This document shows, one piece after another, positions 31,448-34,075 of a stretch of 64,000 bases of DNA (the stretch's first letter is position 1; the number at the start of each line of letters is the position of its first letter). The DNA lies in the NCBI RefSeq assembly GCF_046105845.1, contig NZ_CP151004.1. One strand, written 5' to 3'. The notes under the pieces were generated by a model that saw only the letters and a program-made list of their open reading frames with translations, was not told the origin of the DNA and did not search any database. The DNA is from Escherichia coli (lineage in GTDB: Bacteria > Pseudomonadota > Gammaproteobacteria > Enterobacterales > Enterobacteriaceae). The position numbers and the translations under genes are program-made.

Positions 31448-34075
31448 ATGAGCGACCTTGCGAGAGAAATTACACCGGTCAACATTGAGGAAGAGCTGAA
31501 GAGCTCCTATCTGGATTATGCGATGTCGGTCATTGTTGGCCGTGCGCTGCCAGATGTCCGAGATGGCCTGAAACCGGTACACCGTCGCGTACTTTACGCC
31601 ATGAACGTACTAGGCAATGACTGGAACAAAGCCTATAAAAAATCTGCCCGTGTCGTTGGTGACGTAATCGGTAAATACCATCCCCATGGTGACTCGGCGG
31701 TTTATGACACGATCGTCCGTATGGCGCAGCCATTCTCGCTGCGTTACATGCTGGTAGACGGTCAGGGTAACTTCGGTTCCATCGACGGCGACTCTGCGGC
31801 GGCAATGCGTTATACGGAAATCCGTCTGGCGAAAATTGCCCATGAACTGATGGCCGATCTCGAAAAAGAGACGGTCGATTTCGTTGATAACTATGACGGC
31901 ACGGAAAAAATTCCGGACGTCATGCCAACCAAAATTCCTAACCTGCTGGTGAACGGTTCTTCCGGTATCGCCGTAGGTATGGCAACCAACATCCCGCCGC
32001 ACAACCTGACGGAAGTCATCAACGGTTGTCTGGCGTATATCGATGATGAAGACATCAGCATTGAAGGGCTGATGGAACACATCCCGGGGCCGGACTTCCC
32101 GACGGCGGCAATCATTAACGGTCGTCGCGGTATTGAAGAAGCTTACCGTACCGGTCGCGGCAAGGTGTATATCCGCGCTCGTGCAGAAGTGGAAGTTGAC
32201 GCCAAAACCGGTCGTGAAACCATTATCGTCCACGAAATTCCGTATCAGGTAAACAAAGCGCGCCTGATCGAGAAGATTGCGGAACTGGTAAAAGAAAAAC
32301 GCGTGGAAGGCATCAGCGCGCTGCGTGACGAGTCTGACAAAGACGGTATGCGCATCGTGATTGAAGTGAAACGCGATGCGGTCGGTGAAGTTGTGCTTAA
32401 CAACCTTTACTCCCAGACCCAGTTGCAGGTTTCTTTCGGTATCAACATGGTGGCATTGCACCATGGTCAGCCGAAGATCATGAACCTGAAAGACATCATC
32501 GCGGCGTTTGTTCGTCACCGCCGTGAAGTGGTGACCCGTCGTACTATTTTCGAACTGCGTAAAGCTCGCGATCGTGCTCATATCCTTGAAGCATTAGCCG
32601 TGGCGCTGGCGAACATCGACCCGATCATCGAACTGATCCGTCATGCGCCGACGCCTGCAGAAGCGAAAACTGCGCTGGTTGCTAATCCGTGGCAGCTGGG
32701 CAACGTTGCCGCCATGCTCGAACGTGCGGGCGATGATGCTGCGCGTCCGGAATGGCTGGAGCCAGAGTTCGGCGTGCGTGATGGTCTGTACTACCTGACC
32801 GAACAGCAAGCTCAGGCGATTCTGGATCTGCGTTTGCAGAAACTGACCGGCCTTGAGCACGAAAAACTGCTCGACGAATACAAAGAGCTGCTGGATCAGA
32901 TCGCAGAACTGCTGCGTATTCTTGGCAGTGCCGATCGTCTGATGGAAGTGATCCGCGAAGAGCTGGAGCTGGTTCGTGAACAGTTCGGCGACAAACGTCG
33001 TACTGAAATTACTGCCAACAGCGCCGACATCAACCTGGAAGATCTGATCACCCAGGAAGATGTGGTGGTAACACTCTCTCACCAGGGCTACGTGAAGTAT
33101 CAGCCGCTTTCGGAATATGAAGCGCAGCGTCGTGGCGGGAAAGGTAAATCTGCCGCACGTATTAAAGAAGAAGACTTTATCGACCGACTGCTGGTGGCGA
33201 ACACCCACGACCATATTCTGTGCTTCTCCAGCCGTGGTCGCGTCTATTCGATGAAAGTTTATCAGTTGCCGGAAGCCACTCGTGGCGCGCGCGGTCGTCC
33301 GATCGTCAACCTGCTGCCGCTGGAGCAGGACGAACGTATCACTGCGATCCTGCCGGTGACCGAGTTTGAAGAAGGCGTGAAAGTCTTCATGGCGACCGCT
33401 AACGGTACCGTGAAGAAAACCGTCCTCACCGAATTCAACCGTCTGCGTACCGCCGGTAAAGTGGCGATCAAACTGGTTGACGGCGATGAGCTGATCGGCG
33501 TTGACCTGACCAGCGGCGAAGACGAAGTAATGCTGTTCTCCGCTGAAGGTAAAGTGGTGCGCTTTAAAGAGTCTTCTGTCCGTGCGATGGGCTGCAACAC
33601 CACCGGTGTTCGCGGTATTCGCTTAGGTGAAGGCGATAAAGTCGTCTCTCTGATCGTGCCTCGTGGCGATGGCGCAATCCTCACCGCAACGCAGAACGGT
33701 TATGGTAAACGTACCGCAGTGGCGGAATACCCGACTAAGTCGCGTGCGACGAAAGGGGTTATCTCCATCAAGGTTACCGAACGTAACGGTTTAGTGGTTG
33801 GCGCGGTGCAGGTAGATGACTGCGACCAGATCATGATGATCACCGATGCCGGTACGCTGGTACGTACTCGCGTTTCGGAAATCAGCATCGTGGGCCGTAA
33901 CACCCAGGGCGTGATCCTCATCCGTACTGCGGAAGATGAAAACGTAGTGGGTCTGCAACGTGTTGCTGAACCGGTTGACGAGGAAGATCTGGATACCATC
34001 GACGGCAGTGCCGCGGAAGGGGACGATGAAATCGCTCCGGAAGTGGACGTTGACGACGAGCCAGAAGAAGAATAA
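31448..34075 (+). CDS. gyrA: DNA gyrase subunit A
   Basis: 875 aa; active-site region [31 protein letters not shown]; acidic C-terminal tail. Confidence 0.97.

Follow-up and report, generated by a model that had tools for sequence, protein, structure and literature searches.

An intact Escherichia coli gyrA encodes a GyrA identical to that of K-12 and a gyrase predicted to be quinolone-sensitive

The window analysed here, a 64-kb stretch of Escherichia coli DNA, is an ordinary segment of the E. coli chromosome. It is colinear with positions 2306778..2367530 of K-12 (as the reverse complement) at approximately 97–98% identity, and the 40-odd K-12 genes that it contains are all intact, retain the colinear arrangement and are free of IS elements. 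This state of preservation argues against a Shigella origin, which had been suspected since the best matches among complete E. coli genomes lie at 98.5–99.1%. The gene of interest is an open reading frame on the plus strand (31448..34075; 875 codons plus stop, with the ATG at 31448) that was taken from the list of open reading frames and their translations and encodes DNA gyrase subunit A. It is embedded in the gene order yfaL-ubiG-gyrA-yfaA-yfaT-yfaS, as in K-12 and the closest complete genome. Both the order and the orientation of the direct neighbours, i.e. the divergent ubiG upstream and yfaA downstream of gyrA, match K-12 as well as strain AF40.

The translated product scores 1310 bits against the NCBIfam gyrA equivalog TIGR01063 (cutoff 877) and covers profile positions 1–799 of 800, while its top match in the PDB is 6rks_A, full-length E. 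coli GyrA. The N-terminal cleavage-religation domain (PF00521) spans residues 32–507 with an E-value of 6.7e-163, followed by six PF03989 stretches that correspond to the six-bladed C-terminal beta-pinwheel. The catalytic Tyr122, whose role in E. coli gyrase we take to be established, is encoded by TAT at 31811..31813 (plus strand) inside an AAMRYTE motif. The closest source of confusion would be the paralogous ParC, subunit A of topoisomerase IV and the second quinolone target, which shares PF00521 and possesses an equivalent pair of a serine and an acidic residue, S80/E84. Whereas the window protein exceeds the gyrA cutoff, it reaches only 580.3 bits against the ParC model TIGR01062 (parC_Gneg), which is below the cutoff of 628.9 and places it outside this family. 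In addition, it carries the GyrA box QRRGGKG (residues 560–566; 33125..33145, plus strand) within the first blade of its C-terminal beta-pinwheel domain, a motif that is diagnostic of GyrA as opposed to ParC. A tblastn search of the 64-kb window retrieved no GyrA/ParC homologue besides gyrA. Taken together, the open reading frame 31448..34075 is the intact chromosomal gyrA of E. coli.

On the protein level, all 875 of 875 residues are identical to GyrA of K-12 MG1655 (NP_416734.1, b2231), the enzyme subunit whose structure was solved as PDB 6RKS and 1AB4. The two genes differ at 38 nucleotides (98.55% nucleotide identity), each of them synonymous. If about 70% of random changes are assumed to be non-synonymous, the chance of finding none among 38 would be in the order of 1e-20, a figure that is a rough estimate. 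The exclusively synonymous differences reflect purifying selection that is strong, as usual for an essential gene. Three open reading frames on the minus strand that overlap gyrA (31610..32581, 32594..33214 and 33262..33684) were considered as well and rejected as shadow ORFs of a strongly conserved gene, because in the frame of gyrA none of the 38 differences from K-12 alters an amino acid.

The identity with K-12 extends into the upstream region. The 146-bp intergenic stretch between ubiG and gyrA (31302..31447) is the same in both strains and includes an extended -10-like element, TGTTATAAT, at 31395..31403 on the plus strand, which was found by eye and pattern. It is a putative gyrA promoter, presumably the one described for K-12. 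Since the intergenic region containing TGTTATAAT equals that of K-12, there is no sign of an altered gyrA expression. Downstream, a stem-loop with an adjacent T-run, AAAAGGGAGCTATTTCCCTTTTTT (34093..34116, plus strand), was recognized in the same manner 18 nt past the gyrA stop codon and likely represents an intrinsic terminator. A generic promoter and terminator scan did not flag the gyrA promoter region or the hairpin 3' of gyrA.

With the gene and its frame defined, the codons that dominate quinolone resistance can be read directly. Counting in frame from the ATG (31448 + 82*3 = 31694), codon 83 occupies 31694..31696 on the plus strand and is TCG (Ser), and codon 87 at 31706..31708 is GAC (Asp); a script returned the same readings for both. 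The first-pass annotation of this DNA had reported precisely these codons at these positions, and it was exact in both respects. Its statement that the common substitutions are absent is likewise borne out, as the two codons match those of K-12 MG1655, while S83L would be encoded by TTG and D87N by AAC. Because these codons stand in frame in a gene with a gyrA score of 1310 bits and full identity to K-12 GyrA, their wild-type state is not a chance pattern. The entire quinolone-resistance-determining region (QRDR; codons 67–106, 31646..31765, plus strand) is identical in protein sequence to that of K-12, with synonymous changes only at codons 85 (GTC to GTT), 91 (CGC to CGT) and 100 (TAT to TAC).

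Codons 83 and 87 were the only ones inspected in the earlier reading, and rarer GyrA substitutions that confer resistance do exist. Resistance by one of these, for example A51V, A67S, G81C/D, D82G, A84P/V, Q106H/R, A119E or A196E, would therefore have escaped a two-codon check. The PointFinder list for E. coli gyrA covers positions 51, 67, 81, 82, 83, 84, 87, 106 and 196 and comprises the substitutions A51V, A67S, G81C, D82G, S83L/W/A/V/I, A84P/V, D87N/G/Y/H/V, Q106H/R and A196E (PMC5890747). None of these is present in the window gyrA. A codon-by-codon comparison gave wild-type A51, A67, G81, D82, S83, A84, D87, Q106 and A196, and codon 119 also agrees with K-12. As every listed codon was checked and all residues of the protein are those of K-12 GyrA, resistance through a rarer GyrA substitution is refuted. 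The wild-type state over the whole of GyrA, at the level of K-12, is a stronger result than the original claim on two codons.

A second way in which the reading could fail is an artefact of sequencing or assembly that masks a real substitution at S83 or D87. This was addressed with public assemblies that were found by an exact-protein look-up with the YfaL sequence of the window. The draft assembly GCA_044249515.1 matches the window at 100.000% identity across 23,759 bp around gyrA, and a further draft, GCA_018015415.1, shows a single mismatch to the window in 13,871 bp. Over the 2,628 nt of gyrA, neither of them differs from the window. Since the gyrA sequence recurs across assemblies, codons 83/87 are very unlikely to contain a consensus error. 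TCG and GAC are also found in a related lineage (GCA_017765825.1, SRR6362560), and an artefact would have to have hit one or two specific bases and restored precisely the reference codon there. We therefore regard a masked substitution as so improbable that it can practically be neglected, and retain the wild-type reading of both codons.

Close relatives of this kind were encountered among draft assemblies only. The nearest gyrA allele in a collection of 5,426 complete RefSeq E. coli genomes is 99.1% identical, and across the 22 kb surrounding gyrA no complete genome exceeds 98.5%. Judged by these identities, the lineage of the strain is not represented by a complete genome in this collection.

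The comparison with GCA_017765825.1 points to a possible origin of this allele. In this sister lineage YfaL is identical and the 14 kb upstream are nearly identical to the window, with a mismatch density of about 0 per kb over 17.7–31.5 kb. Most 1-kb bins then contain 9–23 mismatches, beginning with the 5' third of gyrA and continuing to at least 40.4 kb. The onset of the divergent stretch (31573..40439; at least 8 kb at 1–2% divergence) thus lies just downstream of the QRDR, in the 5' third of gyrA, and nearly all of the 127 mismatches counted in the 23.8 kb of the comparison fall downstream of 31.6 kb. Within gyrA, 39 synonymous and no non-synonymous differences separate the two lineages. 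Homologous recombination tracts are common in E. coli, and the abrupt rise in mismatches looks like such a tract, one end of which falls in gyrA immediately after the QRDR. An exchange of this type would account for a gyrA allele that lacks a close match among complete genomes. Conceivably, the tract could have been selected via gyrA, for instance if a wild-type allele replaced a resistant or costly one, rather than being exchanged neutrally; we consider such selection highly unlikely.

To place the wild-type state in the species, alleles were counted with 30-base queries over codons 80–89 against the 5,426 complete E. coli genomes. The megablast search used an exact word of 28 bases, so that an exact match is required at positions 3–28, where both codons lie. 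Wild type was found in 2652 genomes (48.9%), of which 2013 carry GTT and 639 GTC at codon 85. S83L together with D87N accounts for 1702 genomes (31.4%; 1371 with GTT, 331 with GTC) and S83L alone for 485 (8.9%; 413 and 72, respectively), while the other 587 genomes (10.8%) contain other substitutions or other synonymous variants. Even in this collection, which is biased to clinical and resistant isolates, wild type is the commonest state of gyrA over codons 80–89. The resistant alleles with S83L or S83L and D87N, such as those of ST131-H30 and ST1193, reside in the same gene at the same locus and differ from the window by TTG and AAC in place of TCG and GAC. The GTT at codon 85 that forms the background of the window allele is also the commonest background of these resistant alleles. 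As a side observation, among the 5,431 gyrA matches in the E. coli collection there is one whose record bears a plasmid label. The S83L and D87N sequence occurs on one record with such a label, probably the same one. A replicon that was mislabelled or misassembled is the probable cause.

The gyrase of E. coli uses Ser83 and Asp87 to anchor, via two water molecules, a Mg2+ ion chelated by the quinolone's C3/C4 keto-acid, as was shown biochemically, and either substitution, S83L or D87N, disrupts the resulting water-metal ion bridge (PMC9917921). In the enzyme encoded in the window, Ser83 and Asp87 are located on helix IV by the DNA-cleavage site, from where they would anchor the water-Mg2+ bridge for a fluoroquinolone in the gyrase-DNA cleavage complex. 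With both anchors present the bridge should be able to form, and gyrase would be fully inhibitable by quinolones. By its identity to the characterised wild-type enzyme (PMC9917921), the gyrase, and with respect to gyrA also the strain, is predicted to be quinolone-sensitive. The first-pass annotation had likewise predicted susceptibility as far as gyrA is concerned, and this view is supported by a GyrA that is the K-12 wild type over its whole length. Nothing in the sequence of the window contradicts the wild-type reading of gyrA. Overall, we hold with very high confidence that the locus is an intact chromosomal E. coli gyrA, that its product is identical to that of the drug-sensitive K-12 reference, and that gyrase is predicted to be quinolone-sensitive.

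Whether the strain as a whole is susceptible also depends on efflux, on plasmid-borne genes for quinolone resistance and on parC, parE and gyrB, all of which are located outside the window, and the prediction is hence limited to gyrA. A median 24-fold rise in the ciprofloxacin MIC results from S83L alone, and a 1533-fold rise from S83L combined with D87N/G and parC S80I/R; combinations of efflux, Qnr and AAC(6')-Ib-cr increase the MIC up to approximately 250-fold without any mutation in gyrA or parC (10.1101/372086). A strain with wild-type gyrA might consequently still display reduced fluoroquinolone susceptibility through qnr, aac(6')-Ib-cr, qepA, oqxAB, efflux governed by marR, acrR or soxR, or changes in gyrB or parE, and these loci lie outside the window. 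Nothing within the window suggests such non-target resistance, and the single transporter that might come to mind, encoded in a segment absent from K-12, stays far below the curated cutoffs of all efflux families. We consider this scenario unlikely, if less remote than an error in the codons, and it bears on the phenotype and not on the identity of the locus, which remains a wild-type gyrA.

The segment in question comprises 3.8 kb between glpQ and inaA (17440..21277) and is the only one of its kind in the window. Its full length occurs in 710 of the 5,426 complete E. coli genomes, i.e. it is a common chromosomal variant of the species, which further speaks against a role in non-target resistance. 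The transporter gene (20193..21383, plus strand) encodes a generic MFS protein. On the minus strand, the segment contains a gene for a LysR-type regulator (19163..20041) and a low-GC open reading frame for a hypothetical protein of 368 aa (17627..18733) that matches no family. An exact-protein look-up with the latter gave no match, probably due to a mechanically chosen TTG start that is 12 codons too long, as a related assembly calls a product of 356 aa. The K-12 pseudogene yfaH matches only the last 68 residues of the LysR-type gene product. Since merely this C-terminal part is left in yfaH, K-12 appears to carry a deletion.

Several other genes in the window deviate from K-12. OmpC (58005..59138) is 92% identical with 16 gap positions in an intact open reading frame of 377 aa, and the autotransporter YfaL (26680..30438) is 94% identical; both are far more divergent than their neighbours (98–100%), as expected for surface-exposed proteins. 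The gene yfaS (36451..41070), which has a pseudogene annotation in K-12 MG1655, is here a single intact open reading frame of 1,539 codons that encodes a member of the alpha-2-macroglobulin family. GlpT (14967..16325) is intact and differs from K-12 by L297F, E443Q, Q444E and E448K. For fosfomycin, E448K is among the changes that some resistance-calling tools flag. E443Q, Q444E and E448K are treated as neutral polymorphisms, while L297F is untested (PMC10269928).

With respect to quinolones, the finding itself is already known in kind: the window carries the protein-level reference allele of a much-studied drug target, and any resistance-genotyping pipeline would return the same call. It amounts to a routine genotype call for a strain without the first-step target mutation that is found in nearly all highly fluoroquinolone-resistant E. 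coli. As this first-step mutation in gyrA is absent, high-level target-mediated resistance is unlikely in this strain.
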